Source of the DNA: Bacteroidota bacterium
GTDB taxonomy: Bacteria; Bacteroidota; Ignavibacteria; UBA10030; UBA8401
Assembly (NCBI GenBank): GCA_049317705.1
Contig: JBMOHT010000001.1
Span: 1,267 to 65,266, forward strand
Direction: 5' to 3'
Length of the DNA stretch: 64,000 nt
Every line of letters begins with the position of its first letter. The stretch's first letter is position 1. This document shows, piece after piece, positions 7,690 through 57,934 of the stretch. The notes beneath the pieces were generated by a model. It made no database searches and was not told the DNA's origin. It saw only the letters and a list, made by a program, of their open reading frames with translations. The position numbers and the translations under genes are program-made.

Positions 7690-7783
7690 TCGATAATATT
7701 ACATCGTTCACTTGCTTTGCTATATATCAATTGTCCATTGAACCACTCTCAATGAACTAAATCTTTTTTTCGGTAACGCTAAC

Positions 7784-9078: not shown

Positions 9079-9420
9079 TTGAAAGAGTATATGGAACCAA
9101 CAAACGAAACACCTCAAGAGATCACCAAAGAACGGATCTATGCTGCATTAAAAGACGTGTATGACCCCGAGATCCCGGTCAGCATCGTTGACCTGGGTCT
9201 TGTATATGATGTAAAGATCATCGATGATTGGGTCGGAGTAAAAATGACGCTGACATCACAGGGATGCGGTCTTTCGACACAGATCGCCAATAATGTGCGG
9301 GAACGAGTTGCCGCCCTACAGGGCGTGGCTGATGCTGATGTCCGGATCGTCTGGCAACCGGCATGGAATCCTTCGATGATGAGTGAAGAAGCGAAGAAGA
9401 AAGTTCAGTTCTTCGGGTAA
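9079..9420 (+). CDS. DUF59/SufT-like Fe-S cluster assembly protein
   Basis: 113 aa. Contains VYDPEIPVSIVDLGLVYDV and TLTSQGCG, typical of the MIP18/DUF59 family. The start may instead be the ATG at 9091. Confidence 0.8.
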   Translation: MKEYMEPTNETPQEITKERIYAALKDVYDPEIPVSIVDLGLVYDVKIIDDWVGVKMTLTSQGCGLSTQIANNVRERVAALQGVADADVRIVWQPAWNPSMMSEEAKKKVQFFG

Positions 9421-9437
9421 GCAAATTGAAAAACCGT

Positions 9438-9476
9438 TGAAGGCATTTCGCTGACCGCGGAGTGCCTTTTGTTTTC
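9438..9476 (+). terminator. Probable rho-independent terminator after the DUF59 gene
   Basis: Stem AAGGCA (9440-9445) pairs with TGCCTT (9463-9468), followed by TTGTTTT. Confidence 0.55.
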
Positions 9477-9501
9477 ATGATCTTTTATTCAGGAACCCCG
9501 C

Positions 9502-9822
9502 ATGAATGAGAAACGTCCTGACACTGTCATTTCGATGAGTTCAGCTGTCGATTATTCCGACCAATCGATCGTCAGCAAGGTGATCCTCAAAAGACCGAAC
9601 GGCCAGATCACACTCTTTTCTTTTGATGCAGGAGAAGAATTAAGCGAACATACAACACCGTATGATGCATTCATCACGGTAACCGATGGAACAGCTGTTG
9701 TTTCGATCGCCGGTGAACCGAACACTGTCAACACCGGGGAATCGATCGTACTTCCGGCGAACATCCCGCATGCTGTAAAAGCGTTGAAGCGATTCAAAAT
9801 GATGCTGGTGATGATAAAATAA
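9502..9822 (+). CDS. Cupin-domain protein
   Basis: 106 aa. Cupin_2-like pattern (GEELSEHTTPYDAFITVTDGTAVV...LPANIPHAV). Confidence 0.75.
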   Translation: MNEKRPDTVISMSSAVDYSDQSIVSKVILKRPNGQITLFSFDAGEELSEHTTPYDAFITVTDGTAVVSIAGEPNTVNTGESIVLPANIPHAVKALKRFKMMLVMIK

Positions 9823-9874
9823 ATTCCATCCTTGTCCGACTATACAAGGGAACACACTATAGAGAAAGATCACT

Positions 9875-41453: not shown

Positions 41454-44186
41454 CTATTTAATGAGCATCATTCTTCTCGTTTCGACATTCGATCCTGCAC
41501 GGAGCGTATAGAGATACATTCCTGATGCAAGCGAGGCACCGTCGAATCGTACCGAATAAGTTCCAGCACTTTGTTCTTCATTGACGAGTGAAGAGACTTC
41601 CCTTCCGATCATATCATATACTTTCAAGGAGACCATACCGCTCACCGGCAGCTGATAGGAAATTGATGTGGAAGGATTGAACGGATTCGGATAATTCTGC
41701 GACAATGCAAACTCGGACGGAACTTCAATGTTCACCGGTTTCACCGAGGTAATACCAAGCTGTGCGTTGGTCTTATTGGAATATACTTTTGCCGTGAACG
41801 CCTTGATCGGGAATGATGTGACCGTATTTCCCGAAGTGATCAACTGAGTCTGGTCGAATACGTCATACCATGTTGCGGCACCCAGCCACGGAACATTCGA
41901 CAAGGTCTGGTCAGCACCGCTCAGGTTGGCGACCACCATCACTTTTGAGCCGGTTGCTGCATCCTCAAATCCGTAGGCGAGCGATTTTTCTGTCTCGAAC
42001 CGATAGGACAGCATCAATGCACCATCATACAATGCCGGATTCTGAATACGCTGACGGATGAGCGTCTGGTAATACTTGAACTGTTCCTTTCCACGCGCCT
42101 CACCCATCAGACTCCATTCCAATGGACGGTAGGACAACTTTTGATTATCGCTTGTCCATCCGCGTGACGCGGTCATTTCCTGTCCCTGCCAGATCATCGG
42201 AACACCAAGCGATGTGAACGTGAACGTTGAATAGAGTTTATCTCGAAGCAGCGCTTCATTCAACGGAACCGATTGAAAATTCGTCATCTCATAGATGAGA
42301 GACTGTTCGTCGTGCGTGACCGTAGCATTGATCGGTTCGACCCGGCTCGTATAATTTGCGGGAGAAGCAGGTGTGTCATTTCCGCCGAACTCATACAGAC
42401 TGACGACATACTTCTCAATATCCGTGAGTGAGACATTCTTGAATCGCGCTTCATCGAACACCTTATCACGGAATGCATCATGCCAGCCGCTCGTCATACC
42501 GGAATAGTAGATCATGGCAGGACTCCCCGGCAGGTGCTCTGCGATCTGGTAGATCTTTCCTTTGTAGAGCGTATCAATACGGTTCGACCAGCCGAGAATG
42601 CCTTTGGTCGGCTCGTCCTTGTTCCAGCCCACCCCCTGCGTATAGTCATAACGGAAACCGTCCACTTTATATTCATCGATCCACATCTTCAGATTCTCAA
42701 AGATCAGTTCCTGCGTCTCACTGGTCCAGTGGTCCATATCCTTGAAGAACGCCAGATTGTCCTCGTTGTAGCGCATGTCGGAGTTCAGTTTGAAATACGG
42801 ATTCGCCGCTTCATCCGGCAGCATCTGCCATAATGGTCCGGTGTCGTTCTGATGATTGTAAACAACATCGAGGATGACGGCAATGCCGACCTTGTGTGCT
42901 TCATCGATCAGTTTCTTCAGATCAAGCGGTGTTCCATAGGCGGGCTCAATGGCGAAATAACTGTTCAGATCATAACCCCACGAGAAACCGGATTTCCCGA
43001 CGGAACCGTAATCGTTCACCGGCATCAGTTCGATCGCATTCACACCAAGAGATTTGAAATGCGAGAGCAGCAGAGCAACATTTGCAAAACCGGACTGACC
43101 TGCACCAAGTCCATAATATCCCCCGCCGAACTCGCCGACATTCAATTCATAGATGACCGTTTTGTTCAATGGCGGACGTTGATAGCCGGACGCCGTCCAC
43201 ACATAATTATCAGCCGAGATACCGGATGCTCCTGTAGAGAATCGTGTGCCGTACGTTCCGACATAGCGGCCGAACGGATCGGTGACCATCTTCCCGCCGT
43301 CAAGTTCATAGAGGTATTCATATTCCGTGTTCGCATCGAGTTTCACATTGAGCCACCAATTATCGGAGGAAGGATCTTTCTTCATCACACGCGGAGTCGC
43401 CGTTGCGACTGCTTGTCCGGCAGGAGCGATGCGGAGCACGACATAGCTTTTTCCGGGAACTCGCAGACGGAACGTAGTGGAATCACCCGAAGTTCCGGAT
43501 GCAGGAGTCACACCGTGTTTAGCATAGACGGGCATCGGAGCGGACTGCACTTCAAAGACGGAATTCTGATAGACGATGGAATCGCCTTTGTCCGTCTTTG
43601 CGACGATCTTGAAATAATTCGTTTTCGGAAGGGCCGTCGGCAGTGTATAATTCAGCGTCTGTTTCTCGCTGATGTAGGACGAGGTAATATCCGTCATCGT
43701 CGTAGAAAGCGCATTCACTCCGGTATACAACTTAACGGAGGAGATCACATCGGCATTCGTATGGACGATACCGACCGCGATCCGTGTGATATCGGATCCG
43801 GAAGTTTCCGTGAACAGCTCGAAGAAGAAGAGTTTCGTCAACCGGAGAACGGAATTGCTGTTATCATTCGGATTCTGTTCCGGATTGAGAGGATCAGGGT
43901 ACCATGAGCCGTCATTGAATTTGTATTGGTAGACAGAATCTCCGAGGGGAGTACGGGACGCATCATGGATCTTGAACACATATGTCTTCGTCCATGCAAG
44001 GATCACTGCATCATACGCCATGGTATTTGCCGTGGACCAGCCGCTGAAGACACCGGGGAGCGAGACCGGGGTCCCTGCACTTTTATGTGCACGGAATGTG
44101 ATCGTGACCGAATCACTTGAGCTCTGAGCAAAAAGATTGATCGTTAAGAATATTACCGCCGCCGCGCCCCGCATGATTGTTTTCAT
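41454..44186 (-). CDS. Extracellular GH13 pullulanase/isoamylase-type enzyme with a T9SS C-terminal sorting domain
   Basis: 910 aa with a signal peptide. E-set/CBM48-like modules are present. GH13 regions are ILDVVYNH, GFRYDYTQG and IAEH. The CTD is NYPNPFNPSTSISYQLPVSGMVSLKVYD...LYTLRAGSNVETRRMMLIK. Confidence 0.85.
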   Translation of the reverse strand: MKTIMRGAAAVIFLTINLFAQSSSDSVTITFRAHKSAGTPVSLPGVFSGWSTANTMAYDAVILAWTKTYVFKIHDASRTPLGDSVYQYKFNDGSWYPDPLNPEQNPNDNSNSVLRLTKLFFFELFTETSGSDITRIAVGIVHTNADVISSVKLYTGVNALSTTMTDITSSYISEKQTLNYTLPTALPKTNYFKIVAKTDKGDSIVYQNSVFEVQSAPMPVYAKHGVTPASGTSGDSTTFRLRVPGKSYVVLRIAPAGQAVATATPRVMKKDPSSDNWWLNVKLDANTEYEYLYELDGGKMVTDPFGRYVGTYGTRFSTGASGISADNYVWTASGYQRPPLNKTVIYELNVGEFGGGYYGLGAGQSGFANVALLLSHFKSLGVNAIELMPVNDYGSVGKSGFSWGYDLNSYFAIEPAYGTPLDLKKLIDEAHKVGIAVILDVVYNHQNDTGPLWQMLPDEAANPYFKLNSDMRYNEDNLAFFKDMDHWTSETQELIFENLKMWIDEYKVDGFRYDYTQGVGWNKDEPTKGILGWSNRIDTLYKGKIYQIAEHLPGSPAMIYYSGMTSGWHDAFRDKVFDEARFKNVSLTDIEKYVVSLYEFGGNDTPASPANYTSRVEPINATVTHDEQSLIYEMTNFQSVPLNEALLRDKLYSTFTFTSLGVPMIWQGQEMTASRGWTSDNQKLSYRPLEWSLMGEARGKEQFKYYQTLIRQRIQNPALYDGALMLSYRFETEKSLAYGFEDAATGSKVMVVANLSGADQTLSNVPWLGAATWYDVFDQTQLITSGNTVTSFPIKAFTAKVYSNKTNAQLGITSVKPVNIEVPSEFALSQNYPNPFNPSTSISYQLPVSGMVSLKVYDMIGREVSSLVNEEQSAGTYSVRFDGASLASGMYLYTLRAGSNVETRRMMLIK

Positions 44187-44188: not shown

Positions 44189-45592
44189 TTATTCCTCTTC
44201 CAGTGAAGTGATAAAGATCCTCGCAGTGCGCGGCGGTATATCGACCGTAACTGTGCCGCTGCGCGGTTTGAAGACCTTATTGGTGAATTCATCCCGCAGT
44301 TCCTTGATGCCGGGATTGACCGGCATGGTGATGCTCATGATCTTATCCCTGCGGTTGATCGCAACGTAGGCAAAATGCGAATTGAGCTGCCGTTCGAATG
44401 CGAATACTTTTGTTTGATCGTCCGCCGCCAGCGTCTTGAAATATCCGCGGCGCAGTGCGGGTGATTTTTTCCGGATCTGGATCAGTGACTGATACAATGT
44501 GAACAATTCCATATCCCATTTCTTCTCGTCCCACACCATCGTCTTCCGGCAGTCAGGGTCTTTCCCGCCTTCCATTCCGATCTCATCACCGTAATAGACC
44601 ATCGGAGCGCCCATGTATGTCATTTGAAATATCACGGACAGTTTCATCCGCCAGAATTCACCCTGGCAGAGCGTCAAATATCGTTCGGTATCGTGGCTTC
44701 CCAGCAGGTTCATCATCACCAATGAGTGGTAGCGGTGATGTGCATTCCGTAACGTCTCGAGTTGTTTGTCGAATTCACTCGTGTGGATCTTATCCTCGGC
44801 GAAATACTTCAGACACGCATCACGGAACCGGTAATTCATCACCGCGTCGAATTCATCCCCCTGCAGCCACGGTGTGGCGTCATCCCAGATCTCGCCGACG
44901 ATATAGCAGGCGGGATTGCGGGATTTCATGATAGTGCGGAATTCCTTCCAGAAATCATGCGGAATCTCGTTGGGGACATCCAGTCTCCAGCCATTCACAC
45001 GCTCAGACCAGTATTTCGTTACATCGAAGATATATTTTTTCACTTCCGGATTCTGAACCATCAGTTTCGGCAGCGAACCATATCCCCACCAGCATTCATA
45101 ATTCGGTTTATCCGGCGGAGCAACAGGATAGGAATAGATATTGAACCACGACGCATACGGAGAATCTTTTCCTTTTTCCTTCACATCCTTGAACGCAAAA
45201 TGGTCCGTTCCGACATGATTGAATACACCGTCGATCACGACCATGATATCGTGTACTTTGCATTGCATCATAAAACGGTCGAACAGCTGATTGGTCCCGA
45301 ATGCGGGATCGATCACGGAATAGTCCGACGTATTATATTTGTGATTGGAATTTGCCGCGAAGATGGGATTCAGATAGATGGCATTCACACCGAGCCGCTT
45401 CAGATGTCCGAGCCGGTTGATGATCCCTTGAAGGTCACCGCCGAAATAATTGTTCCCTTTCGGTTTGGCACCCCACTGTTCGGTATTCGGCGGATCGTTC
45501 GATGTATCGCCGTTCTCGAACCGTTCAGGAAATATCTGGTAGAACACGGCATCTTTCACCCAGTCAGGCACGATCACGGGAATATTCTGCAT
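44189..45592 (-). CDS. Cytoplasmic GH13 alpha-glucosidase/neopullulanase-cyclomaltodextrinase-type enzyme
   Basis: Contains VFYQIFPERF, GGDLQGI, IDGVFNHVG, GWRLDVPNE, VGEIWD and LLGSHDTER, and has no signal peptide. I moved the start to Met18 (45592) because codons 1-17 of the tracked ORF are the upstream terminator hairpin. Confidence 0.88.
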   Translation of the reverse strand: MQNIPVIVPDWVKDAVFYQIFPERFENGDTSNDPPNTEQWGAKPKGNNYFGGDLQGIINRLGHLKRLGVNAIYLNPIFAANSNHKYNTSDYSVIDPAFGTNQLFDRFMMQCKVHDIMVVIDGVFNHVGTDHFAFKDVKEKGKDSPYASWFNIYSYPVAPPDKPNYECWWGYGSLPKLMVQNPEVKKYIFDVTKYWSERVNGWRLDVPNEIPHDFWKEFRTIMKSRNPACYIVGEIWDDATPWLQGDEFDAVMNYRFRDACLKYFAEDKIHTSEFDKQLETLRNAHHRYHSLVMMNLLGSHDTERYLTLCQGEFWRMKLSVIFQMTYMGAPMVYYGDEIGMEGGKDPDCRKTMVWDEKKWDMELFTLYQSLIQIRKKSPALRRGYFKTLAADDQTKVFAFERQLNSHFAYVAINRRDKIMSITMPVNPGIKELRDEFTNKVFKPRSGTVTVDIPPRTARIFITSLEEE

Positions 45593-45621
45593 AGAGGTCA
45601 CTTCTTGTCTGGTGGATATAG

Positions 45622-45653
45622 AAAAGGCAGGGCAATTACTCACCCTGCCTTTT
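45622..45653 (-). terminator. Rho-independent terminator of the 1058-aa gene
   Basis: On the minus strand AAAAGGCAGGG-tgagtaattg-CCCTGCCTTTTC forms an 8-bp GC-rich stem followed by T4. Confidence 0.65.
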
Positions 45654-45715: not shown

Positions 45716-48700
45716 TTACTTCAGGAACATCATCTTCTTTACGGAAGTGAAGTTACCTGCTTCGATCTTGTAGAAGTACACGCCGCTGGACAATGAGTTT
45801 GCATTGAACGTTGCTTTGTAGTTGCCAACGGTCTGCATTTCATTGACGAGTGTTGCGACTTCCTGTCCAAGAACGTTGAACACCTTCAGGGAGACCATAC
45901 CATTCACAGGGATCGAATAGTTGATGACCGTTGAGGGGTTGAACGGGTTCGGATAGTTCTGTGTCAGTTCGAACTGTGTCGGTGCTGCACCGTCAACCTG
46001 TTTCACGCTCTTTGTTTCCAAAGCATAGTTCCACTGGTTGTAGTACAACGGATTGATGCTTCCGAACTGGCTTGCAATGGTTGCGGTAGCTGCAGCGTCA
46101 TTGATGTTTTCGATATGGTTGTTACCGAATCCGCCTTTGCCGCCTTCGTTATCGCCGCCCTTGATACCGAACTTGAATTCCTGACCAACAACGTTGTTCA
46201 GGGAGTCTTTGTAGAACTTGATCTGACGAGTGTAGATACGGTCTCCGGCAACAGCATCACCGTGTGTTCCGTTATCATACATGAAGCGCGTGGTATCGTC
46301 GATCAAGGACTGTCCCCAAGCATTCCATCCGCCTGCTGCCGGACCGTTGATTGCAACGCCCCATTTGTAGACAGAATCTTTGCTGGTAACATTGACTGTG
46401 TTCTGGATACCGAACAGCGTATCGCCCTTAGCAACCTGCCAGAATGCCGGTGCGAGGTTCACTGTGAACTTCACATCAACGTTCTGTGTCAGTTTGCGTG
46501 TATTGCGGAAGAACGGCCAGCGGTTCGCTTTGGTCTGATCTTTTGTGGTATCGACTGCTGAATTGGATTTTGCCGTCAACGGGAGCAAGCGGCGTTCTGC
46601 CAGCGTTACATCCGATCCGGTAAATCCGAAGTTGTAATATGATTCACGGAAATCCACACCATTCTTGACGATATAATACTGATACACCAGCGGTTTGCCG
46701 GTGCCGTCAGCTTTGATGTTGACGCCTCTGATCGATGAATCTGTTGCTGAATATACGTTGGAGAATGCCGATTTTACGAGATTCTTTGTTCCAACAAGTG
46801 AAGCGGACGATGCAAAACCATAACGAACCTGCACTGTATCTCCGATGGTATAGCCGTTGGTGGAGATAGCGCGGGACATATCAACCTGGAATTTCACGAT
46901 CGCTGTATCTGTTCCTGCCGGCGGTTTCACGCCAATATCATCCCACCATTTCCAGTAGAGTGTCGTATCGGCACTTCCGCGTTTGATGGTGAACGGACGA
47001 TCGGAAACACCTTCCCATTTCACAACATCGTTCGGTGTAGCATTGTTGATCTGGACGAATTTGAATGCATGTCCGATCGGAACGGTGATGGTGTCGGTAT
47101 TTGCTTTTTTCAACGGCAATTTGAATGTACCTGACCAGAAGTTCGGTCCGGTATAAGCAACGGATCCGCCGTTACCATGGTTTGCTTCACGTTTCAGTGT
47201 GAAGCCGGGGCCCCAACCGTTGAAGCTACCGCGGACGCCAACGCTCTGCGTTACCGGGTTGAAATCTTCCTGATTCTGCATGTTCACACGGAATGTCACT
47301 TCAAGTGAATCCGATTCAACATACGGGCGCCAGAAATGTGCCTGCTGTGCCGTTGAACCGTTCACGAATTGAAGTGCAATGGTCGTATCATTCTGTCCGA
47401 CAACCATTTTGCGGTTACCGTTGCCGTAGGAATTGATGTCATTTTCCCAGCCATTGTGTTCACCGGGATGACCGGCACCAACATTCGCCTGAGCATGTGT
47501 ATAGAGTTTGTACGGGAAATCAGCACCGGGAGCAAAGCGTGCTTTTGCCTGCCAGTAGTCACCGCCGATATTGGTGAACCGTACTGTCGAAGCGCCGTTC
47601 CAATCGAGCAGTCCGCCCGAAGCACCGCCGTCGCCGCGCATCTGAACGGTGGAGGTTGATTTCAATGTATCCGGAACCGATGAAGTATTCACAATGAATG
47701 TCACTTCAACGGAGCCCTGTTTCTTGAACATACCGGTGGAACCTGTGCCGCCGACGAGGATATGCGTAAGATCATAACCGCCTGCACCTCTGAATTCGGA
47801 CGTTGTTGACGGTGTCACCAATGCTGAGAATGATGTTCCGCCGTCTGTGGAGAGCCATGTACCTGCTTTTGCACCGCTGGTACCGACTGCCATCAGGTTC
47901 GTGGAGCCGCCGATCAGGTTCACTGTACGGACCTTTGTTGTTGCAAGGATAGCACCGGGAACGATCGCGATGGAATCGCTCCATGTTGCGCCGCCGTCAG
48001 TTGTTTTGTGGAACGGGTTGCCCTGTGTACCGGATTGACGACCGACACCCCAGCCGTTGTTTGCATCTTTGAAGGTGATCGAACGGAAATAGTAGTTCAC
48101 ATTTCCAACTGCATCTGCCACTTTGCTGACATGATGTGTCCATGTAACACCGCCGTCAGTCGATTTGATCAACGGAAGACCAACTCTGTTCGCAGCAGTC
48201 GCCTGGTAGTATGTTGCCCAGATCGTGTTGCCGATAGCATCGATGGATTTACCATATGCGGAAGAGGAGAATGTCTTTACGACGCCCTTCACTTCAGCAG
48301 GAATGGTAGTGATACGCGACCATGTTTTGCCTGCATCGGTGGTCTTCACCAAATGCATACCGAACCAGTCAGCATCACCAATAGCATATGCTGTTGTACC
48401 ATCAACAGCTTTTACGCCGTCGAAATACGCCGTGTCAACGTTGGAATATTTGTAAACAGTATCCCATTTTGCACCGCGATTCTCTGTTCTGAAGATGATA
48501 CCATCGTAGTTAGCAATAACTGCAGTGGAATCATTGAATGCGGCAATGTTCACATAACCGGCATTCGACGTCGGGGGCATTGCTGTTTTTGACCACGATG
48601 CACCGCCGTCTTTGGAATAGAACGTGTAATCCTGTGAACCGACCCAGCCGTTGGCCCAAACAACGCCGTTGGCTTTATAGTCGATCGCTAACACCGTGAG

Positions 48701-48892
48701 ACCGCTCAGACCTGCGACGTTTACCGGGGTCCAATCAGAACTCGGTGCCATGGCAGACGCCGGAGCGTTGGTGCTCATAACTTTTCTTGCTTCGCGTTCT
48801 TCTCTTAACTTTTCCTGACGTGCGGGATTAGCCGCGGCCAGAATGCCAAGAGCAACGCACGAAAGCAATACAACTTTTAGTGCATATTTCAT
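45716..48892 (-). CDS. Secreted BNR/Ycf48-like beta-propeller protein with repeated CBM-like beta-sandwich modules and a T9SS CTD
   Basis: 1058 aa. Six SxDxGxTW-type repeats (SKDGGASWS, TENRGAKWD, TTDAGKTWS, STDGGVTWT, TTDGGATWS, STDGGTSFS). Modules such as EVTFRVNM...VRGSFNGWG are present. The CTD is QNYPNPFNPSTVINYSIPVNGMVSLKVFN...KKMMFLK. Confidence 0.7.
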   Translation of the reverse strand: MKYALKVVLLSCVALGILAAANPARQEKLREEREARKVMSTNAPASAMAPSSDWTPVNVAGLSGLTVLAIDYKANGVVWANGWVGSQDYTFYSKDGGASWSKTAMPPTSNAGYVNIAAFNDSTAVIANYDGIIFRTENRGAKWDTVYKYSNVDTAYFDGVKAVDGTTAYAIGDADWFGMHLVKTTDAGKTWSRITTIPAEVKGVVKTFSSSAYGKSIDAIGNTIWATYYQATAANRVGLPLIKSTDGGVTWTHHVSKVADAVGNVNYYFRSITFKDANNGWGVGRQSGTQGNPFHKTTDGGATWSDSIAIVPGAILATTKVRTVNLIGGSTNLMAVGTSGAKAGTWLSTDGGTSFSALVTPSTTSEFRGAGGYDLTHILVGGTGSTGMFKKQGSVEVTFIVNTSSVPDTLKSTSTVQMRGDGGASGGLLDWNGASTVRFTNIGGDYWQAKARFAPGADFPYKLYTHAQANVGAGHPGEHNGWENDINSYGNGNRKMVVGQNDTTIALQFVNGSTAQQAHFWRPYVESDSLEVTFRVNMQNQEDFNPVTQSVGVRGSFNGWGPGFTLKREANHGNGGSVAYTGPNFWSGTFKLPLKKANTDTITVPIGHAFKFVQINNATPNDVVKWEGVSDRPFTIKRGSADTTLYWKWWDDIGVKPPAGTDTAIVKFQVDMSRAISTNGYTIGDTVQVRYGFASSASLVGTKNLVKSAFSNVYSATDSSIRGVNIKADGTGKPLVYQYYIVKNGVDFRESYYNFGFTGSDVTLAERRLLPLTAKSNSAVDTTKDQTKANRWPFFRNTRKLTQNVDVKFTVNLAPAFWQVAKGDTLFGIQNTVNVTSKDSVYKWGVAINGPAAGGWNAWGQSLIDDTTRFMYDNGTHGDAVAGDRIYTRQIKFYKDSLNNVVGQEFKFGIKGGDNEGGKGGFGNNHIENINDAAATATIASQFGSINPLYYNQWNYALETKSVKQVDGAAPTQFELTQNYPNPFNPSTVINYSIPVNGMVSLKVFNVLGQEVATLVNEMQTVGNYKATFNANSLSSGVYFYKIEAGNFTSVKKMMFLK

Positions 48893-48915
48893 AGAATACT
48901 CCTATGGTTGATTAA

Positions 48916-48960
48916 TACGGTGGATTATGGAACGCTTACAGCAGTTACGATGGACTATGG
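48916..48960 (-). repeat. 15-bp direct repeat (13/15 identical) spaced exactly 30 bp apart, upstream of the 1058-aa gene
   Basis: On the plus strand tacggtggattatgg (48916-48930) matches tacgatggactatgg (48946-48960). The repeats lie 24-68 nt upstream of the ATG at 48892. Confidence 0.6.
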
Positions 48961-49069
48961 TACTATACTTCTTCCGTTGCACCTCCTTTATCAAGAACGA
49001 TACATAGATGTTGGAATTAGTGTTCAGTGAATTGATTTTACCACATTTAATACCAAAAAACAACATTCC

Positions 49070-50077
49070 TTAGAAAGTGATTCCGATCGCCAACGTCTGA
49101 ATTCCGCCGAATTTGCCGAATTCCTGGTATGCAAAATCAAAGGAAACGACATTTGCCCCGGTGATCTCATATTTTGCACCCGCACCGGCAGTGAACGTCT
49201 CTTCTTTTTCGGGCAAAAAGAGAGATTTCATACCCCCGCGGAGGAATATCGCATCGCGCCATGATAATTCTCCGCCGACATTGAGCATTTCAGCGCTGTC
49301 GCTCGGACGAAGAGCATCAGCAGCGATGATCAGTCTCATATCATCTGTTTTGAATGCATCGATGGAAACACCGGCACGGAAAAAGAGCGGCAGAGGACGG
49401 TCTTCAGTCTTGTATTGTGCAACGATCGTTGCATTGTTGCCGGATTCATTTGGGCGGGAATCGAAGTTATTATAGAGATCCTTACCGTCCAAACGCATAT
49501 CGGCTCCGAAGTTGGAGATGCTCATTCCGATGGTCAGTCCGTTGAAATCGGTCTTATATTTCAGTCCGACATCAAGGGCCATTGAACTGGCTGATTCATT
49601 CCAGATCTTCATCTGAATCAATTTTGCCGTCGCACCGATAGCGAATTTATCCGTCAGATTGCGTGCATAGGAAATACCGACTGCCAGATCGGAAGCGGTC
49701 CATGTCTCTTCCCCGCCGTTCTGACTGAATTCGGTCGTGAGCATCTCTTCACCGTAATTCAGCTGCGTCACATTCACACCGATCGCGCCGCCGTCTCCAA
49801 GATCAACTGTCACACCGACCCAGTCGAATTTAGTGTCGACCAGCCACGCAGTGTGCGAGACCAGCACTTGAGAATATCCCAGCTGAGAGATCGCACCGGG
49901 ATTATAATAGAGTGCCGATGCATCGTTCGCAACGGCGACATATGCTCCGCCGAGTCCGATACCTCGGGGACCGACTGCAATGCCGAGGAACGGCGCCGCA
50001 GAAGTTCCGACCTTGGACTGCGAGAATGCAGGAAGAGCGATGAACAACATGAGAACGATTGATAATACTTTTTTCAT
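49070..50077 (-). CDS. PorV/PorQ-family outer-membrane beta-barrel protein (locus-embedded paralogue)
   Basis: Signal peptide MKKVLSIVLMLFIALPAFSQ. Contains GTSAAPFLGIAVGPRGIGLGGAYVAVANDASALYYNPGAISQL, the PorV/PorQ N-terminal signature. Ends in F (LAIGITF). Confidence 0.75.
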   Translation of the reverse strand: MKKVLSIVLMLFIALPAFSQSKVGTSAAPFLGIAVGPRGIGLGGAYVAVANDASALYYNPGAISQLGYSQVLVSHTAWLVDTKFDWVGVTVDLGDGGAIGVNVTQLNYGEEMLTTEFSQNGGEETWTASDLAVGISYARNLTDKFAIGATAKLIQMKIWNESASSMALDVGLKYKTDFNGLTIGMSISNFGADMRLDGKDLYNNFDSRPNESGNNATIVAQYKTEDRPLPLFFRAGVSIDAFKTDDMRLIIAADALRPSDSAEMLNVGGELSWRDAIFLRGGMKSLFLPEKEETFTAGAGAKYEITGANVVSFDFAYQEFGKFGGIQTLAIGITF

Positions 50078-50114
50078 GATAAGCTCCGAAGATTCTTTTT
50101 TCACGTGAATCACC

Positions 50115-53100
50115 TTATTTGATCACCGCGATCTTACCGGATTTTGTTCCGGAAGATGACTCAATGACATAGAAGTAAACGCCGAACGCAACATCGAGAT
50201 TCTCTTTCGTCTTCACATCCCATTTGATGGTGCCATTCTGAATTGAACCATCCTGATGCAGTGTACGGATATGCTCACCGCGTGCGGTATAGATGGAGAC
50301 CTTCGCATCCTGAGGCACATTCTGGAACTCGATCTTCCGTTCTCCTCTGCCGAATGTTCCGGCGGCCGGCGGTGTTTCGCCGTATGCCTGAACAACGTAA
50401 GGATTCGGAACGACTCTGACTGATGAGAGTGACGGTGAGACATTCCCCACAACCACTTTCGGTTTCTCGGTCGTGAAATAGAACTTATCCTCTTTACGGA
50501 ATGATTTGCGTGTCCGTAATTTCAGCGTGTCTCCTGTTCCGAATGTGTAGACGGTATCAGGACCGAATGATGGTTTTAAGAAATAGACCGTCCATGTATA
50601 GATCAATGAATCTTTTTTATTTTTTTCAAAGAATAGCAATTGATCATCGGATGACATTTTGCCGGGATTGATATTGTCCAACCAAAGGAATGATACCTTC
50701 TTATTTTCCGTGATATTCTTCACGGTAAAGTTCGTCGGTGTCGGCGGAAGCCCATAAAGATCAGCAGTTGTATCGATTATCGAATTAGAAAAGACAATAT
50801 TGTAATCGGCTGCATTTTCTGAAGCATAAGTGTCATAGACGCCGTTGCCGTCAATATCAAGATCCACCGTGGAGAAGGTAAATGCATATGCTTTGTTCAG
50901 ATTGGAGAATTTGGAGAGCGAATCGATCAGCGAGATCTTCCAATCGTTGGTAAAAGCCAGCTGAACACCGTCGAAGATGTCCGTGTCATACGTTTCACGG
51001 ACGTATGGACTGTTATTGATATAGGGACTCTTCGCCACGGGATAATACTGATACCGGATCGAATACTTCCGCAGATTATTGGTATCCGGCTGCAGATCGT
51101 ACCGAGCTTTTGCACGGATAGATCCGCGTTCAAGATTCAGGATATATTTTGACGTATCGACCGGTGTCCCGTCCTGTTTCGTTATAGTGATGCTTCCCTT
51201 CACCAGATTCGTCTTCGGCAGAAGAGCCGTTATCGTATCTATCTTTGAAGGAGCAAACGTGCCGTTATAATAAGTCGTATCGCGAACATAATAATAGGTC
51301 GTTACGGGTGAGAATTTTCCGCTGTCCCTCGTATCGAGGAACGATACTTCATATGTACTCCCGCTGATCTTTGATTCGTCGACCACTTTATAGTAGACAT
51401 TACCTGTTGCAACGACCGAAGCTGCTTTGGGAACTTTTACTGACGACGGCGGAGGCGTGTAACCGGAGACCTTCTTTCCCGGCACTACGATGGCGACGTT
51501 CTGTGAAGCCCCGCGGATACGGCCTGCCTGATCGATATCGATCTTCCAGCCGTTCTCTGACGGGAAGATACCGGTCACTTCATCGCCGTTATCATACGCA
51601 ACGATCACATAGTAATATGTCTTTCCGTTCACCACGTCATAATCCGCTGTATCATGGACCAGACCGGTGTTGGAACCGAGCTTATATGTGAATCCTGCCG
51701 CATCGTCGAAGATCGCAGCCGGTGCGCGGTAATATCCGCTGATGCTGTCCTTCAAGTCCACCTGGAATTTTGCATCATACCCTTTTCTGTTTCCGTCGGC
51801 ATCCGTTACAGAGAATGCATCGTTGAATTCATAATCCGTTGCTTTATAGATCTTGTATCCCTGAAAATCTTTGATCTTCAGAACGGGATCGATCGCATTC
51901 TCTGCTCTCCGGTCCCAATACAATTTTACTTTTCCGTCGCCGGCGACCGCAGTCAATGTCGGCACGGGTTCCGGTGCGATCGGGAACTGATAGTTTGCAT
52001 CATAGATCTTCTGCACGGTCTGTTTGTGTTTCAGCAGATCGGTGATATCATCCTCACGTGAACCGCCGTTGCCGCCGCCGTAGACGAGTGCAAGCGAGAA
52101 CCGTTCCGTCTTTTTGGAAAGCAGCGGGAAGTATCCGGATGAGTACGTGAAGTCGCCGTCCTGACCGTATTCGGGTTTGTTGGCAACGATCGATTTCGGC
52201 ACGGAGAACACGCCGGGTTTCATATCGCCCCAGAGGATCTCATCATCGCCGAGATAGATACCGTTGGCCGGAGTGAAATACTTGAAACTCGTCAGACCGA
52301 TCTGATCGGATTCATCAACATCCGTCTTATCGATATTCGGTTCACCGGGAAGACCGGTATCCGTTCCGTTCACCGAGTACCCTGATGAAGGAAGACCGTC
52401 CGCTTCACCGGCATCCTTCGTCCCTGATACACCGTCCATACCGACGTCATCGAATCCGATATTCCAATCCTTGTCGTTGTCCACCAGGTCATCCCTGCGT
52501 TCATCGATCATCGCGAACGGACCGCCGTTGAATGCGGGATTATAGGTAAGGTAACGGACAGGACGAAGGATATCGATCAAGGTCTTCGGCGGGATATCGT
52601 CGGATGTCTTCACCTGTCTGAAATGCAGGTAGTAGTTCTCATCGATGATTCCGTCAAGGTCATTATCAATACCGTCGAATGCATTCGGGTTGACGGTCGG
52701 TACGCCGGAAACGATGATCACATTTCCTTCCGCCAGTTTCGTTGTTCCCGCCGTAACAGATACTGTTCCGCCGCGCGTGTTGAAAACGGTCGTGCCCGCA
52801 GCGACTGTAACGATCTGTCTGCTGAAGTCATTGTTGATCAGTACGACTTTGGCGCCGGCATTGATCTTTGTGGAATCAAAATCTGTTGCGACGAATAACG
52901 ATGTCGGAGATCCGACAACTTTCTTGTCGACATCACCGTCGTTGTCGATCGCATCGTACGGATTTCCCGGACTTTCGAGGAATGCATATCCGACCATTCC
53001 GACACTTCCCTGCCAGAACGGATTGCGGGCGCAATTCCTGTCGAAATCGCCGGTGTAGGTGATATTCTCGTTCACATCGTAGAAGGACCAGTCATCATCA

Positions 53101-53900
53101 TATTCATTGAAATTCTGTGTTCCGGTCACACCGACCAATGTTCCCACAAGCATACCGAATGTTGCGCGGTCATAGTTGGATGTGCTCGTATTGGTGATCT
53201 CATACAGCCAGAAAATATTGTCCTGAGCAAGGAACTGGCTCCACTGCATACCGCGGACCTTCACGTTCAATCCAAGTCCGTTCCGCGATGTATTGTTGGA
53301 ATCCGGTTTGAATGCAATGCCCAGACTGTTATTGTTCGCAAAGCTGTAACGGATGTCATTATTATCATCCATCACTACGTAACTCTCCTGATTCGCGCTG
53401 GAACGTTTTCCGAAATATCCGTTCCACGATCCCTGCCATCCCGGATCCTGTCCGTCGTTCAATTTATCGGGCCATGATGTCGGCCAGGTGGTTGGGTCAT
53501 CACTCATCGCGATGCTCTGTTTTGCGGGATTGAAGTATCCGTTCACCGGCATGAATGTCCACGGTTTGCCGCCGCCGGATTTGTCATCCGTATCGAACGA
53601 TGATGCGGGACGCGAGACAGGACTCGTCACGACCGAATGGAATGTCTGTCCTGCGGTCTTCACTTCCGCACCGACGATGAGCGAAACGTCGCCGACATAT
53701 CCGTTCGTGGAATAGATCCATGCGCCGCGAGGCCGTGTATCACCCGGCTGACCGATCACACCCCAGTTACCAAAGACCGATTTCACTCGGTTGGCGTTGT
53801 GAACGGCTGAGCGGTAATACTGCGAACCGGATTGGGAGAACGCTCTCTCGGATCCGATCACGAGAACTAACGCAAGAATTGATGAGAGTATTTTTTTCAT
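50115..53900 (-). CDS. 1261-aa secreted protein of unknown function with Ca-binding-type Asp repeats and a T9SS-like CTD
   Basis: Signal peptide MKKILSSILALVLVIGSERAFSQ. DxDxDG-type loops are present (IDNDGDVDK, DGIDNDLDGIIDEN, DDLVDNDKDWN, DDVGMDG). The C-terminus is VVPNPYVV...GVYFYVIESSSGTKSGKIAVIK. It lies 14 nt downstream of the TonB receptor gene. Confidence 0.6.
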   Translation of the reverse strand: MKKILSSILALVLVIGSERAFSQSGSQYYRSAVHNANRVKSVFGNWGVIGQPGDTRPRGAWIYSTNGYVGDVSLIVGAEVKTAGQTFHSVVTSPVSRPASSFDTDDKSGGGKPWTFMPVNGYFNPAKQSIAMSDDPTTWPTSWPDKLNDGQDPGWQGSWNGYFGKRSSANQESYVVMDDNNDIRYSFANNNSLGIAFKPDSNNTSRNGLGLNVKVRGMQWSQFLAQDNIFWLYEITNTSTSNYDRATFGMLVGTLVGVTGTQNFNEYDDDWSFYDVNENITYTGDFDRNCARNPFWQGSVGMVGYAFLESPGNPYDAIDNDGDVDKKVVGSPTSLFVATDFDSTKINAGAKVVLINNDFSRQIVTVAAGTTVFNTRGGTVSVTAGTTKLAEGNVIIVSGVPTVNPNAFDGIDNDLDGIIDENYYLHFRQVKTSDDIPPKTLIDILRPVRYLTYNPAFNGGPFAMIDERRDDLVDNDKDWNIGFDDVGMDGVSGTKDAGEADGLPSSGYSVNGTDTGLPGEPNIDKTDVDESDQIGLTSFKYFTPANGIYLGDDEILWGDMKPGVFSVPKSIVANKPEYGQDGDFTYSSGYFPLLSKKTERFSLALVYGGGNGGSREDDITDLLKHKQTVQKIYDANYQFPIAPEPVPTLTAVAGDGKVKLYWDRRAENAIDPVLKIKDFQGYKIYKATDYEFNDAFSVTDADGNRKGYDAKFQVDLKDSISGYYRAPAAIFDDAAGFTYKLGSNTGLVHDTADYDVVNGKTYYYVIVAYDNGDEVTGIFPSENGWKIDIDQAGRIRGASQNVAIVVPGKKVSGYTPPPSSVKVPKAASVVATGNVYYKVVDESKISGSTYEVSFLDTRDSGKFSPVTTYYYVRDTTYYNGTFAPSKIDTITALLPKTNLVKGSITITKQDGTPVDTSKYILNLERGSIRAKARYDLQPDTNNLRKYSIRYQYYPVAKSPYINNSPYVRETYDTDIFDGVQLAFTNDWKISLIDSLSKFSNLNKAYAFTFSTVDLDIDGNGVYDTYASENAADYNIVFSNSIIDTTADLYGLPPTPTNFTVKNITENKKVSFLWLDNINPGKMSSDDQLLFFEKNKKDSLIYTWTVYFLKPSFGPDTVYTFGTGDTLKLRTRKSFRKEDKFYFTTEKPKVVVGNVSPSLSSVRVVPNPYVVQAYGETPPAAGTFGRGERKIEFQNVPQDAKVSIYTARGEHIRTLHQDGSIQNGTIKWDVKTKENLDVAFGVYFYVIESSSGTKSGKIAVIK

Positions 53901-53914: not shown

Positions 53915-56857
53915 TTAAAATTCGATCGTCGCGCCGACTTCGATCCTGCGCGGTTCGGAATAATTCTGCGGATTCGTGTAATAATCTGAAATGGTGTTGA
54001 TATACGGTTTCTGTCCGGAGAGCAATGCTTCGCGCTCGTATTTCGTTTCACCAGCTCTGCCGGTATCGCCGTAGACGCCGGTCTCATTCTTTGTATCGAA
54101 GATATTATTCACTCTCATGAAGAGTGTCACTTTCAACGCATCGAGCGAGATATTCTTGTATACGCGGACGTCGGTATTGAAATAGGAAGGTTTGATCTCA
54201 GAGTTGGTCAGGAACACGGTCACATCACTCGTCACATCAGGTGTATACGGTGTGCCGCTGCCGTATTGACTGATGATGCTTCCTCCCCACGTCTCCTCTG
54301 AATATGAGAAGATACCATTGATGGTGTGCCGCTGGTCCCATCCGAGCGGTGTCAGCTGCACTTCGGGAAGCTGTCCGCCTGCCACCTGATTACGGGCCTG
54401 GTTCGGATCCGATGCGCTTCCGCGTGCGATCTGGAACGTATAATCCACTGCAAGGGACATGCCCTGTGCGAACCGTTTGTCCAGCGAAAGGATGAAACCG
54501 CGGACAAAGCCGAAATCGCTGTTCACATATTTTGTATAGGTGCGTGATGCGAATCCGCCGCCGATCGGGATCTGATCCGCGCGTGAACCGGTGAGGTTAC
54601 GGATATCGCGGAGATACGCTGTGACATCGATGCTCATGTCGTCGGTCAGCTGCTGCTGAAGCCCGATCTCACCGTTGATCGTCTGTTCCGGTTTCAGATC
54701 GGCATTCCCGGTCGGTGCTCCGCTATGGTCAACATTACCGGTCCCTTCGCCGACCTTGAATCCTGGATTCGCATACAAACGTTCAAAATTCGGGGTCTGG
54801 AAGAAATGACCGTATGAGAAATGGATCACACCGCGGTCGGTGATCGGGAAGGATGCGCCGAAGCGGGGACTGATCTTGAATTTCGATGAAGCTTTTTTAT
54901 ACCAATACGTTCTGCGGTCTGCGACTGTTTTTGCTTTTTCGATTCCGTCCTGAATTCCGTTCCCGTTCGTATCAAAGAATGTGTTGATGACCTTTGCGGG
55001 AGAATAGATATTCGGATCCTCATCATCGGCAAGGACATTGGCATCGGGTTCAAAATAGTCCACCCGAACACCGATGTTGATGATAAGGTCCTTGAATTCC
55101 ATCTTATCCTGAAGATAACCGGAAAGTTCGATCGGTTTGTGTGTATACGTATCGTGATAATTTGAAGAATCGCTCTCGATGTACGTGGAGATATACGGAC
55201 TTGACTGGCCGTTCTTATAGGAAAGCTGACCCGGAACAGGGCGCAGCGTCAGGTCATCCATAAATACTTTATGCTGACGCACTTCAACGCCGGCCTTCAC
55301 GAAATGCTCGTTGCTCACCTGACTGCTCAGATCGAACTTCAGCAGACCAGTGGTCGTTGCACGCTGATACCGTCCAAGATCTGAACCGCCCGTGCTGTAT
55401 GAATACGTGCTTTGAGCGCGGCCGAGATTCGCAAGATCGGGATGGGTGTATCGGGTGTCGTAAGGATTTTCGTAGAGGTAATGTTTGAAGGTCTTTTCGA
55501 AATATGATCCGCCGAGAGTATAGAACGTTGTCGTGCTCAGTGTGTGGGTCAATTGGAAGATACCGGTATAACTCTTTGTATAATTCTTTCCCTGACCGTC
55601 CGGATTATACTGGAAGTCACGGTTGTAATCCTGCGATTCAACATTGTCATAGATACCGGTGATATTCAATTTCAGTTCGGGAGTGATCTTCATGGCAAGT
55701 TTTGCCTGCAGATATACTTTATCATTCCATCCCATCGGAACTGTCTTTCCGTCCCCTTTTCCGTTCGTGTAGAGATTCGTGAATGCTCTATAAGCGGAAT
55801 CGGCCTTTGCTTTGTTGATGGAATCCGCCTGCGCAAATGTCAGCGAACCGCCGGGGGTCACAAATTTAACATTGGCGAGTGAATAGATCCTATCGTTCAA
55901 AGTGTCCGTACCGAGGATGTACACTTCGTCTTTATCGAACCGTTTGGCTATAGCTGTGCTCGGAGTATACCGGCGGATCCCGTTCAAATAGCCGCCGTAA
56001 TGGATATTCCGACCGTTAAGATAGAGTGAGACATCCTTTCCGACGAGCGGACCGCTGATACTTCCTTCAATATTGCGGATGTTGAGCGGTTCAAATTTTT
56101 CGATCCCTTTGAAGATATTTCCGTGATTACTGAGGAAGTCACCAGCATATGCGGTAACGCTCCCTGAATACTTTTCCGCACCTTCACGAGTGACGATATT
56201 CACGATACCGGACATTGCCTGGCCGTATTCCGCATTGAATGCGCCGGAAAGGACCTGAAGTTCCTGCACCATACTCGGATTGACATCAACAACAGCGCTG
56301 CCGTTGAACACGTCCGTCACCGGCACACCGTCGATCCAATATGCAGTCTCACCGGAACGTCCGCCCCGGATACTCCCTGCGACGTTACCGGCCTGCAGAT
56401 TGATCACCTGGCTGATCTCTGTTACAGGAAGCTGCTTGATATCATCGCCGCCGACGACTGCGGTCGTCGAGGTAAGGTCCTTCTGCACCAGCGGACGTTC
56501 AGCAGTGATCACGACCTCATCACCGACGACGGTCTCTTCGCTGATCTTAAAATCCTGACGGGTGGTAAGGTCCGATGCAACACGAATGTTGGAGTAACTG
56601 ACTGGTGAATAACCGATGGACGATGCGCGGATGGTATACGTACCCGGCTGAAGATTCAGGATGAGATAATTTCCCTCAAAATCCGTCACCGCACCGTATG
56701 AAGTTCCGACAAGGATGATATTCACACCCGGAAGGTCTTCACCGGTCTTTGCATCGGTGATCTTTCCGACGATCTTACCGGTTGTGCCGGCAAATGAAAC
56801 GGAAGTAAGTGAAAGGAATGTGATGAATATTGCGAGAACGGTAACAATTTTTTTCAT
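53915..56857 (-). CDS. TonB-dependent receptor with an N-terminal carboxypeptidase-regulatory-like domain (SusC-type architecture)
   Basis: 980 aa with a signal peptide. The CarboxypepD_reg domain is GKIVGKITDAKTGEDLPGVNIILVGTSYGAVTDFEGNY. A plug domain follows, then a long barrel ending in RRIEVGATIEF. Confidence 0.9.
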   Translation of the reverse strand: MKKIVTVLAIFITFLSLTSVSFAGTTGKIVGKITDAKTGEDLPGVNIILVGTSYGAVTDFEGNYLILNLQPGTYTIRASSIGYSPVSYSNIRVASDLTTRQDFKISEETVVGDEVVITAERPLVQKDLTSTTAVVGGDDIKQLPVTEISQVINLQAGNVAGSIRGGRSGETAYWIDGVPVTDVFNGSAVVDVNPSMVQELQVLSGAFNAEYGQAMSGIVNIVTREGAEKYSGSVTAYAGDFLSNHGNIFKGIEKFEPLNIRNIEGSISGPLVGKDVSLYLNGRNIHYGGYLNGIRRYTPSTAIAKRFDKDEVYILGTDTLNDRIYSLANVKFVTPGGSLTFAQADSINKAKADSAYRAFTNLYTNGKGDGKTVPMGWNDKVYLQAKLAMKITPELKLNITGIYDNVESQDYNRDFQYNPDGQGKNYTKSYTGIFQLTHTLSTTTFYTLGGSYFEKTFKHYLYENPYDTRYTHPDLANLGRAQSTYSYSTGGSDLGRYQRATTTGLLKFDLSSQVSNEHFVKAGVEVRQHKVFMDDLTLRPVPGQLSYKNGQSSPYISTYIESDSSNYHDTYTHKPIELSGYLQDKMEFKDLIINIGVRVDYFEPDANVLADDEDPNIYSPAKVINTFFDTNGNGIQDGIEKAKTVADRRTYWYKKASSKFKISPRFGASFPITDRGVIHFSYGHFFQTPNFERLYANPGFKVGEGTGNVDHSGAPTGNADLKPEQTINGEIGLQQQLTDDMSIDVTAYLRDIRNLTGSRADQIPIGGGFASRTYTKYVNSDFGFVRGFILSLDKRFAQGMSLAVDYTFQIARGSASDPNQARNQVAGGQLPEVQLTPLGWDQRHTINGIFSYSEETWGGSIISQYGSGTPYTPDVTSDVTVFLTNSEIKPSYFNTDVRVYKNISLDALKVTLFMRVNNIFDTKNETGVYGDTGRAGETKYEREALLSGQKPYINTISDYYTNPQNYSEPRRIEVGATIEF

Positions 56858-56899: not shown

Positions 56900-57934
56900 T
56901 TATTGTTGATGGAACACATATTTTTTGTTAGCACCGCAGCTTGCACGGACCACGAGCGACGGTTTGAAGTCCACCGATGTGACCGGTGCATTCGGATTCT
57001 CGATCCGTTCCAGCATCTTCTTGACGGCCAGTTCACCCATCTTGAACATCGGCTGGCTCATGGTCGTCAGATCGAAATTCTTTGCGAGTTCCACATCATC
57101 AAAACTGACGATCGCGACATCACCGGGGACGCTGAAACCGCTTTCACGCAGAGCAGCAAGAACGCCGATGGCCTGGATATCGCTGGATACGAAGAATGCG
57201 TTCGGCATCTTCGTCCCGCGTGCAATGAACTCTTTCATGCTGTGGTATCCGGATTCCCTGCTGAATCCGTCATTCTTTGCGTCCGGACTGATCATAATGA
57301 GGTCATCACTGACCTTGATACCGCGGTCGGACAAGGTAGATCGAAAACTGGAAAGACGTTCGCGTGCCGGAGAACTTTTCAGATTTGCATTGATCATTCC
57401 GATGGAGGTGTGTCCTAGTGACAACAGATGCTCCGTAGCGATCCTCGCCCCCATGGCATTATCAACACGGATTGAATCGAATAACGGATGGAATGTATCG
57501 ACCAACACGAGCGGGATCTTTCGGTCAAGGATCTCCTGAGCATACTGTTCAGGCAGTTCCAATGAAAAAAGCAATGTTCCGTCCACTCTCCCTTTTCGCA
57601 TTGACCGCTGAAGGTATTCTTCCACCTGATCCTGATTGTTGGCGCCGTGAATGATCAGATCATATCCCAATGTTGTCAGTGTTTCCTGGACCCCTTGAAG
57701 GACCTCAATGAAGAAATAATTCGTGAAGAAAGGAATGATGGCGCTGAGTGTATTGGATCGTTTGCGGGCCAATGCCTGAGCAAATGCATGCGGCTGATAG
57801 TTCAGCCGGCGGGCAATAGTAATAACGCGTTCGCGGGTCTCTGAAGTAACATTTGCGCTGTTATTCAAGACCCGAGAAACTGTACCAATCCCTACATTCG
57901 CTTCTCTGGCAATGTCGTATATCGTAACGGACAA
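56900..57934 (-). CDS. LacI-family transcriptional regulator
   Basis: 344 aa. The HTH is VTIYDIAREANVGIGTVSRVLNNS, followed by a periplasmic-binding-fold sugar sensor domain. Confidence 0.95.
   Translation of the reverse strand: MSVTIYDIAREANVGIGTVSRVLNNSANVTSETRERVITIARRLNYQPHAFAQALARKRSNTLSAIIPFFTNYFFIEVLQGVQETLTTLGYDLIIHGANNQDQVEEYLQRSMRKGRVDGTLLFSLELPEQYAQEILDRKIPLVLVDTFHPLFDSIRVDNAMGARIATEHLLSLGHTSIGMINANLKSSPARERLSSFRSTLSDRGIKVSDDLIMISPDAKNDGFSRESGYHSMKEFIARGTKMPNAFFVSSDIQAIGVLAALRESGFSVPGDVAIVSFDDVELAKNFDLTTMSQPMFKMGELAVKKMLERIENPNAPVTSVDFKPSLVVRASCGANKKYVFHQQ

Follow-up and report, generated by a model that had tools for sequence, protein, structure and literature searches.

PorZ and PorU are the two type IX secretion system (T9SS) proteins known to keep their C-terminal domain (CTD), bound to the outer-membrane barrels PorQ and PorV, and cognate "PorV-like" barrels have been proposed to shield CTDs from cleavage (PMC10202324). 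According to the abstract of PMC12618676, PorV recognizes all of the type-A CTDs, and that paper describes type-B CTDs as needing a PorP/SprF barrel of their own, which also sets their final location. Current T9SS models have a single PorV for all type-A CTDs and private barrels for type-B cargo only. In the BAM complex, BamG holds BamH through extracellular loops (PMC12578637). Here, we describe a gene in a 64,000-nucleotide stretch of a Bacteroidota bacterium (assembly GCA_049317705.1, contig JBMOHT010000001.1; this whole stretch is called the window) that encodes an extra outer-membrane barrel of the PorV/PorQ family. The gene follows those of a TonB-dependent receptor (TBDR) and of a 1261-amino-acid (aa) secreted protein, referred to as the giant, whose CTD is of a variant type. 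The barrel is probably the cognate, PorQ-like anchor of this CTD, holding the giant beside the receptor of a starch locus.

The arrangement can be compared with several described systems. It shares its barrel family with two pairs in the T9SS attachment complex of Porphyromonas gingivalis, PorQ-PorZ and PorV-PorU, and the CTD of the partner is nearest to the PorZ and PorU tails. Those pairs occur once each, whereas there are about 16 pairs per genome here, with large proteins of an unannotated family as partners, a TBDR encoded with each pair in a catabolic locus and a separate barrel clade; binding between barrel and partner and retention of the CTD are what we infer in the present case. As with type-B CTDs and their PorP/SprF barrels (SprB-SprF and Fjoh_3952-3951 of Flavobacterium johnsoniae; PG1035-PorP of P. 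gingivalis), the barrel gene adjoins the cargo gene, and PMC12618676 and PMC9143113 describe cognate specificity and a pair that decides the final surface location. Unlike in those systems, the window barrel is of the PorV/PorQ family, the CTD is a type-A derivative and the pair is linked with a TonB receptor and not with gliding or PorE. Housekeeping PorV (F. johnsoniae, PDB 6H3I/8GL6) has the same fold and N-terminal signature as the window barrel, which differs from it in length (335 aa vs 370-400 aa), in score against the PorV equivalog model (67 bits vs a cut-off of 250) and in clade.

The SusC/SusD (RagA/RagB) systems also have a TBDR gene followed by a surface-protein gene at the head of a regulated glycan locus, in many paralogous copies. 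In contrast to these, the genome has no match to SusD (PF07980), and the receptor fails the SusC/RagA model TIGR04056 (76.5 bits vs a cut-off of 368, N-terminal part only). The partner is a non-lipoprotein CTD protein of 640-1260 aa with no detectable SusD similarity, and a third gene, that of the barrel, is obligatory. BamG-BamH is similar in that a 14-strand FadL-type barrel of the BAM complex holds a surface protein by its loops and packs on a larger barrel (PMC12578637); it belongs to a different family, matches the window barrel less well in structure (9hjm_F, query TM-score (TMq) 0.52) and involves BamA, to which the window barrel has no link. A full-text literature search found no paper on TonB-linked PorV/PorQ paralogs. 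As SusD is absent from the relative studied here, three genes in the Melioribacter roseus genome paper (PMC3534657) may be a receptor, a variant-CTD protein and a barrel. Cognate CTD-barrel pairs and TonB-dependent transporters with a surface partner are both known principles.

Identity of the barrel

The barrel gene lies on the minus strand and was listed as an open reading frame (ORF) at 49070-50113 with a GTG start. Translation probably begins at the ATG at 50077, giving a gene of 49070-50077 and a protein of 335 aa, because from there a normal signal peptide results and the start of 51 orthologs is matched in the alignment. Read from this ATG, the N-terminus is a signal peptide, MKKVLSIVLMLFIALPAFS, followed across the cleavage site by QSKVGTSAAPFLGI..., with the cut between ...AFS and QSK (QSKVG...). 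A preliminary description of the window had called the gene a PorV/PorQ paralog from an N-terminal signature and a C-terminal Phe, and both are present in the translation (GTSAAPFLGIAVG...GLGGAYVAVANDASALYYNPGA; C-terminus ...LAIGITF).

Profile searches agree with this call. Against the NCBIfam hidden Markov model (HMM) of the PorV/PorQ family, NF033709, the protein scored 188.3 bits (cut-off 90) over residues 25-333 and profile positions 1-324 of 326, and it narrowly passed the Pfam PorV model PF19572 (28.8 bits, cut-off 27). It failed the equivalog models for PorQ (NF033711, 100.2 bits, cut-off 220, profile positions 1-191 only), PorV (NF033710, 67.3 bits, cut-off 250, N-terminal half only) and PorV2 (NF052325, 66.6 bits, cut-off 325). 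The FadL/Toluene_X model PF03349 was also failed (19.0 bits, gathering cut-off 29.7), TIGR03519 (PorP/SprF) was not among the NCBIfam matches, and the BamG models gave no match. An AlphaFold2 model built with 52 orthologs (predicted local distance difference test (pLDDT) 87.3, predicted TM-score (pTM) 0.79) is a barrel of the 14-strand type. Its top Foldseek matches in the PDB were the PorV chains of SprA translocon complexes, 8gl6_F (TMq 0.74) and 6h3i_F (0.70), with FadL (TMq ≤ 0.57) and BamG 9hjm_F lower. Likewise, a profile of the barrel paralogs gave E 5e-33 for PorV 6h3i_F, compared with about 1e-5 for TodX/TbuX. A FadL-like identity, which the preliminary description had named as one way its call could fail, was rejected on the sub-cut-off HMM score and the better match of PorV structures than of FadL. 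The window gene is confirmed as a genuine extra copy of a PorV/PorQ-family barrel.

The assembly that contains the window (at C1:1267-65266) has 4.44 Mb and a completeness of 96% and is fragmented into 432 contigs (C1 and so on), so that all counts in this genome are minimum values. Twenty genes exceed the NF033709 cut-off, so the window gene is not the only PorV homolog, and 16 of these, including it, fall in one clade. The true PorV is encoded at C5:24124-25299; it has the best NF033709 score in the genome (313 bits) and passes the PorV equivalog NF033710 (270.9 bits, cut-off 250). PorU (825 bits) precedes it, forming a PorU-PorV operon. PorQ, on C96, is cut by the contig end (184.7 bits over profile positions 71-334), PorZ is on C300 (358.7 bits) and SprA on C2 (1060 bits). 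The genome has one T9SS, represented by SprA, PorU, PorV, PorZ, a partial PorQ and about 230 CTD proteins. A housekeeping-PorV identity of the window gene was rejected, with the PorU-PorV operon, PorQ, PorZ and SprA all encoded outside the window. The PorU gene itself (C5:25327-29391) is broken into a 1189-aa ORF and a CTD-bearing 136-aa ORF (NF033707 positions 1-949 and 958-1094), which is either a frameshift or stop in this metagenome-assembled genome (MAG) or an assembly error.

A maximum-likelihood tree was calculated from 39 sequences, comprising the family members of the genome, FadL, and reference proteins from Bacteroidia-type genomes (six for PorV, five for PorQ). The own C5 copy grouped with the PorV references (support 99/97) and the own C96 copy with the PorQ references (100/99), and the window gene lies outside both clades. 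It belongs to a third clade of 16 own-genome paralogs (support 94/86, core 98/97); with midpoint rooting, this clade falls on the same side as PorQ. By HMM score (100 vs 67 bits) as well as in the tree, the window barrel is closer to PorQ than to PorV, and for this reason a static anchor fits it better than a shuttle. A tandem pair of divergent family genes at C53:9763-11876 (NF033709 165 and 74 bits) falls outside the PorV, PorQ and third clades; it is preceded by a 519-aa protein whose tail is weakly CTD-like, and the same pair is found in a same-genus genome (G108, C1:1681904-1683639).

The receptor, variant-CTD protein and barrel module

The two genes upstream of the barrel are on the same strand and nearly touch each other, with 14 nt between receptor and giant and 37 nt between giant and barrel. 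The receptor (53915-56857, minus strand, 980 aa) has a CarboxypepD_reg N-terminal extension, a plug and a barrel (PF00593 92 bits, PF13715 67, PF07715 33). The giant (50115-53900, minus strand), which we propose as its surface partner, is a secreted, multidomain, beta-rich protein. Its signal peptide ends between ...ERAFS and QSGSQ and has no lipobox Cys, which makes it a signal-peptidase-I substrate and not a lipoprotein. Scans of Pfam and NCBIfam placed neither the giant nor six other proteins of the same middle position in any family. An AlphaFold2 model of residues 62-1261 was mostly beta (pLDDT 80.7, pTM 0.73), and Foldseek found no global analog of it in the PDB, only generic Ig/FN3 arrays (TMq ≤ 0.10) and PorZ 5m11 at E 1e-3. 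In an alignment of 55 sequences, acidic DGIDNDGD-type repeats and an FN3-like block are conserved ahead of the CTD. The acidic loops at residues ~300-530 (DGIDNDGD, DGxDNDLNGLIDEN, RDDGIDNNGDW, GEGDGxPTxGEP) resemble thrombospondin-type-3 or dockerin-like calcium sites and coincide with the lowest-confidence parts of the model.

The variant CTD (~100 aa, 50118-50420, minus strand) reads VVPNPYV...GRGERKIEFQNVP..KVSIYT.RGEHIRTL..GTIKWD..ENLDVAFGVYFYVIES..GKIAVIK. The last ~100 residues of the middle proteins align with one another as VVPNPY...K.EF.N.P....I.IYT..G..V.T......G...W......N...A.GVY.Y.V.....G.K.GK.A.IK. The giant stays below the curated type-A cut-offs (TIGR04183, 20.7 bits against 23; PF18962, 13.1 bits against 27). 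We nevertheless call its tail a divergent type-A derivative in which an insertion follows the PNP motif, though a non-member by the curated models, because its profile matched that of the genome's canonical type-A CTDs with a probability of 96.7% (hhalign, E 3.4e-10). When the last 121 residues were searched alone, NCBIfam returned, in order, the PorZ C-terminus (NF052228 670-757, E 6.5e-6), the PorU C-terminus (E 1.7e-4) and TIGR04183.

Two HMMs, one for the variant and one for the canonical CTDs, were built and run on the six-frame ORFs of the genome. The canonical model matched 234 ORFs. The variant model separated about 17-19 proteins, ~17 of which scored 57-138 bits with it and 0-19 with the canonical model, and 15 are directly followed by a PorV-family gene. 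The genome's own PorZ and the tail of its PorU also score higher with the variant model than with the canonical one. A natural control is provided by a 968-aa paralog of the giant's body (C146:1834-4740, E 7e-108), the CTD of which is canonical and next to which no barrel gene lies.

To find the modules, the neighbors of the barrel in the window were searched with phmmer against the six-frame ORF set of the genome. For 14 of the 16 clade barrels, the same-strand order is TBDR (820-1050 aa), middle protein (640-1261 aa) and barrel, with gaps of a few bases. Contig ends truncate the modules on C118 and C306 within the receptor or middle gene, and the C118 fragment matched no family. On C10 and C120 the receptor is directly followed by the barrel; the C120 module stops at the contig edge, and on C10 a middle-type gene with a variant CTD is found 7 kb upstream on the same strand, within the same string of genes. 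Over 11 modules, the three components co-diverge (Mantel r 0.55-0.74, p < 0.001). This three-part co-divergence shows duplication of the module as a unit and does not tell which pair touches.

The module is conserved well beyond this genome. A species-representative genome scan with a four-sequence paralog alignment as query gave 564 relatives, and the 80 best loci were analyzed, among which the nearest has 95% identity. They come from MAGs labeled Ignavibacteriae/Ignavibacteriota, Candidatus Kryptonium/Kryptoniota, Calditrichota and KSB1, together with generic or probably mislabeled "Bacteroidetes" bins. The upstream same-strand neighbor of the barrel has a variant CTD in 71 of 72 loci and a canonical CTD in none of the 72, the second-upstream gene is a TBDR in 53 of 54, and the downstream gene has a canonical CTD in 52 of 60. 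In six loci (L043, L046, L073, L075, L079 and L100) the upstream genes or the barrel were apparently lost, and these losses are artefacts of ORF calling (long antisense ORFs) or contig-edge truncations; tblastn recovered the genes, or the C-terminus of the giant at the contig edge, in all six. The order of receptor, variant-CTD protein and barrel is kept wherever upstream DNA is present. The receptor and giant of one further locus, L068 (Ignavibacteriota MAG MFD02979.bin.3.125, ~3190-9863), are in many short ORFs, which reflects either pseudogenization or a poor long-read consensus.

A near-complete same-genus genome (7 contigs) has 11 module barrels, 10 of them in the same order and one of these 10 being the ortholog of the window locus. 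In the 11th module, a variant-CTD protein comes first, then a canonical-CTD protein and an intervening stretch, and last the receptor and the barrel. In a 151-genome survey of the phylum, at most 13 candidates were scored per genome, and the family counts are therefore lower bounds. Most genomes of the window's class have at least 13 family members. Families whose best match scores at the level of Bacteroidia PorV (E ~1e-104 or lower) have 1-7 members, and one family has none. The preliminary description had taken the barrel for a copy peculiar to one substrate locus, and this part must be given up: with 16 clade members and representatives in several phyla, it belongs to a multi-copy module.

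Candidate roles for the barrel

An anchoring role is the simplest account of the data: the barrel and the giant would be a cognate pair like PorQ-PorZ, present in many copies and joined to TonB receptors. The following sequence of events would fit it. The giant would be exported by Sec and carried over the outer membrane by the T9SS, with its CTD as the signal. By analogy with PorZ and PorU, the variant CTD would stay uncleaved and be docked on the extracellular face of its private barrel, and this docking would keep the large, beta-rich giant on the cell surface, next to the TBDR. Receptor, giant and barrel might then capture and import the alpha-glucan fragments made by the two secreted proteins of the locus, a GH13-CTD enzyme and a protein with BNR repeats and carbohydrate-binding module (CBM)-like segments. 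The giant would in this way take the role of SusD, a job done in Bacteroidia by SusC with the SusD lipoprotein. CTD-barrel binding, CTD retention, receptor contact and the glycan-capture role are all suggested here by analogy and genomic context.

Several observations weigh against the anchoring role. The barrel co-diverges with the receptor (Mantel r 0.74) at least as strongly as with the CTD (0.55). The variant CTD is only weakly similar to the tails of PorZ and PorU, barely more so than to the generic type-A model (E 3e-4). Variant-CTD proteins on C79, C127 and C124 have no adjoining barrel gene. Canonical-CTD genes are usually found just downstream of the barrel, which is compatible with a wider role in sorting local cargo. 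Finally, the glycan-binding role of the giant rests on context, and the giant has no recognizable carbohydrate-binding module or PDB analog. Concerning the proteins without a barrel gene, those on C79 and C127 may be orphan cargo with the variant CTD, sharing a barrel whose gene lies elsewhere. At C79:1-3182 and C127:7268-11618, the variant-CTD gene is followed in one case by a SurA-like 493-aa protein and, in the second, by a putative lipoprotein of 230 aa where the contig ends.

One alternative is that the barrel acts as a transient private shuttle, which takes the giant from the SprA translocon and then hands it on. The PorV-type fold of the barrel and the type-A core motifs kept by the variant CTD are consistent with this, and PMC12618676 documents cognate shuttles for type-B CTDs. 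We consider it unlikely: the barrel is of PorQ size (335 aa), scores higher with the PorQ than with the PorV model and lies on the PorQ side of the tree, the variant CTD resembles the retained tails of PorZ and PorU, and a barrel gene for every cargo gene would be costly for a purely catalytic role.

Another possible explanation is that the barrel is an accessory of the receptor, packing on the TBDR barrel as BamG does on BamA and stabilizing or regulating it, with the giant binding the receptor by itself. Barrel and receptor are the pair with the strongest co-divergence, the barrel directly follows the receptor on C10 and C120, and there is a known case of a FadL-type barrel docked on BamA whose loops hold a surface protein (PMC12578637). 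This idea leaves unexplained why every module protein has a special CTD and why the body paralog with a canonical CTD has no barrel. It is also compatible with anchoring of the giant and not exclusive of it. As a full account of the barrel, it seems quite improbable.

The barrel could also sort or tether all local CTD cargo close to the receptor, namely the giant together with the GH13-CTD enzyme and the BNR/CBM protein, and the canonical-CTD genes that come after the barrel in 52 of 60 related loci and in the window are in line with this. We rank such a locus-wide adaptor low, as very unlikely, because the local canonical CTDs are of the type shared by ~230 proteins without a private barrel and because several modules, C35, C84 and C173 among them, have no canonical-CTD gene adjoining. 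In addition, the number of module barrels tracks the variant-CTD proteins and not the canonical cargo. The preliminary description had proposed a cargo-specific T9SS adaptor and named the surface display of the GH13-CTD enzyme as its readout. This proposal is partly supported: genomic pairing speaks strongly for a dedicated partner, but this partner is most likely the 1261-aa protein and not the GH13-CTD enzyme, the CTD of which is of the same canonical type as in ~230 other proteins.

A diffusion channel of the FadL kind, taking up some small hydrophobic or amphiphilic compound and present in sugar loci by chance, is hardly credible. In its favor are the descent of the PorV family from FadL, a weak match to Toluene_X (19 bits) and the second-tier fold matches to FadL structures. 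Against it, that score misses the FadL cut-off and is tenfold lower in bits than the score with the PorV/PorQ model, PorV structures are clearly the better match, C52 carries the genome's real FadL, and the strict linkage to a CTD protein would be unexplained.

A broader proposal can also be made, to which we give even chances. The trio may be a widespread outer-membrane nutrient-capture machine of the non-Bacteroidia lineages of the Fibrobacteres-Chlorobi-Bacteroidetes (FCB) group (Ignavibacteriota, Kryptoniota, Calditrichota, KSB1), whose binding subunit or lid is a T9SS protein with a retained CTD plugged into a PorQ-like barrel. Cognate CTD-barrel pairings would then comprise three classes (type A with PorV, type B with PorP/SprF, and this one), and glycans could be imported independently of SusD. 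The data point to a large, multi-phylum family of PorV/PorQ-type private barrels, each with a PorZ/PorU-like CTD variant, and suggest how polysaccharide degraders that have T9SS enzymes and no SusD could give their TBDRs a surface partner. Should this be true, secretion and nutrient import would be mechanistically linked, and hundreds of "hypothetical" proteins of 640-1300 aa and "PorV/PorQ family" genes in environmental genomes could be annotated by rule. Receptor, variant CTD and barrel together would then mark polysaccharide utilization loci outside Bacteroidia.

The starch locus and its remaining genes

The catabolic operon setting given in the preliminary description is correct, as the regulator, TBDR, giant, barrel, BNR/CBM20-like CTD protein, GH13, GH13-CTD and GH57 genes (GH, glycoside hydrolase) are all on one strand, the minus strand. 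The head of the locus is a LacI-family transcriptional regulator (56900-57934; NF007075 164 bits; RbsR/PurR/CcpA-like matches). A gene of 340-370 aa is found at the regulator position in most related loci, its family having been tested for the window copy only.

Downstream of the barrel lies the BNR/Asp-box propeller protein with CBM20-like segments (45716-48892, 1058 aa; BNR matches), whose canonical type-A CTD (PF18962 41 bits, TIGR04183 46 bits) makes it, with the giant, the pair of CTD-bearing proteins between which the barrel had been placed. The claim is right for this one, which is ordinary T9SS cargo, and needs qualification for the upstream giant, which fails the curated CTD cut-offs, though its tail is homologous. 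The 1058-aa gene is followed by that of a GH13 enzyme without a CTD that resembles cyclomaltodextrinase or maltodextrin glucosidase (44189-45643, 484 aa; PF00128 242 bits; NF041090 363 bits, cut-off 540) and by that of a pullulanase/amylase-type GH13 enzyme with a canonical type-A CTD (41454-44186, 910 aa; PF00128 77 bits, PF18962 34, TIGR04183 39.8). Further downstream is the gene of a GH57 enzyme with CBM48-like and CBM20 modules (38729-41314, 861 aa; PF03065 195 bits, PF16561 54.5, PF00686 39).

A gap of 177 nt (48893-49069) separates the barrel from the 1058-aa gene, with a T-run just past the barrel's stop codon. No terminator-like hairpin was found in 48893-49069, and the counts of the promoter and terminator scan were at or below the shuffled expectation. 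Transcription of the trio may run on into the downstream gene; alternatively, an internal promoter or operator may be located in the gap.

In both the barrel and the giant, the first residue past the predicted signal-peptidase-I site is Gln (50017-50019 and 53832-53834, minus strand). In the barrel this residue is invariant across 52 orthologs. Bacteroidota follow a "Q-rule", by which the mature N-terminus becomes a pyroglutamate, and the Gln at +1 of the barrel and the giant fits it.

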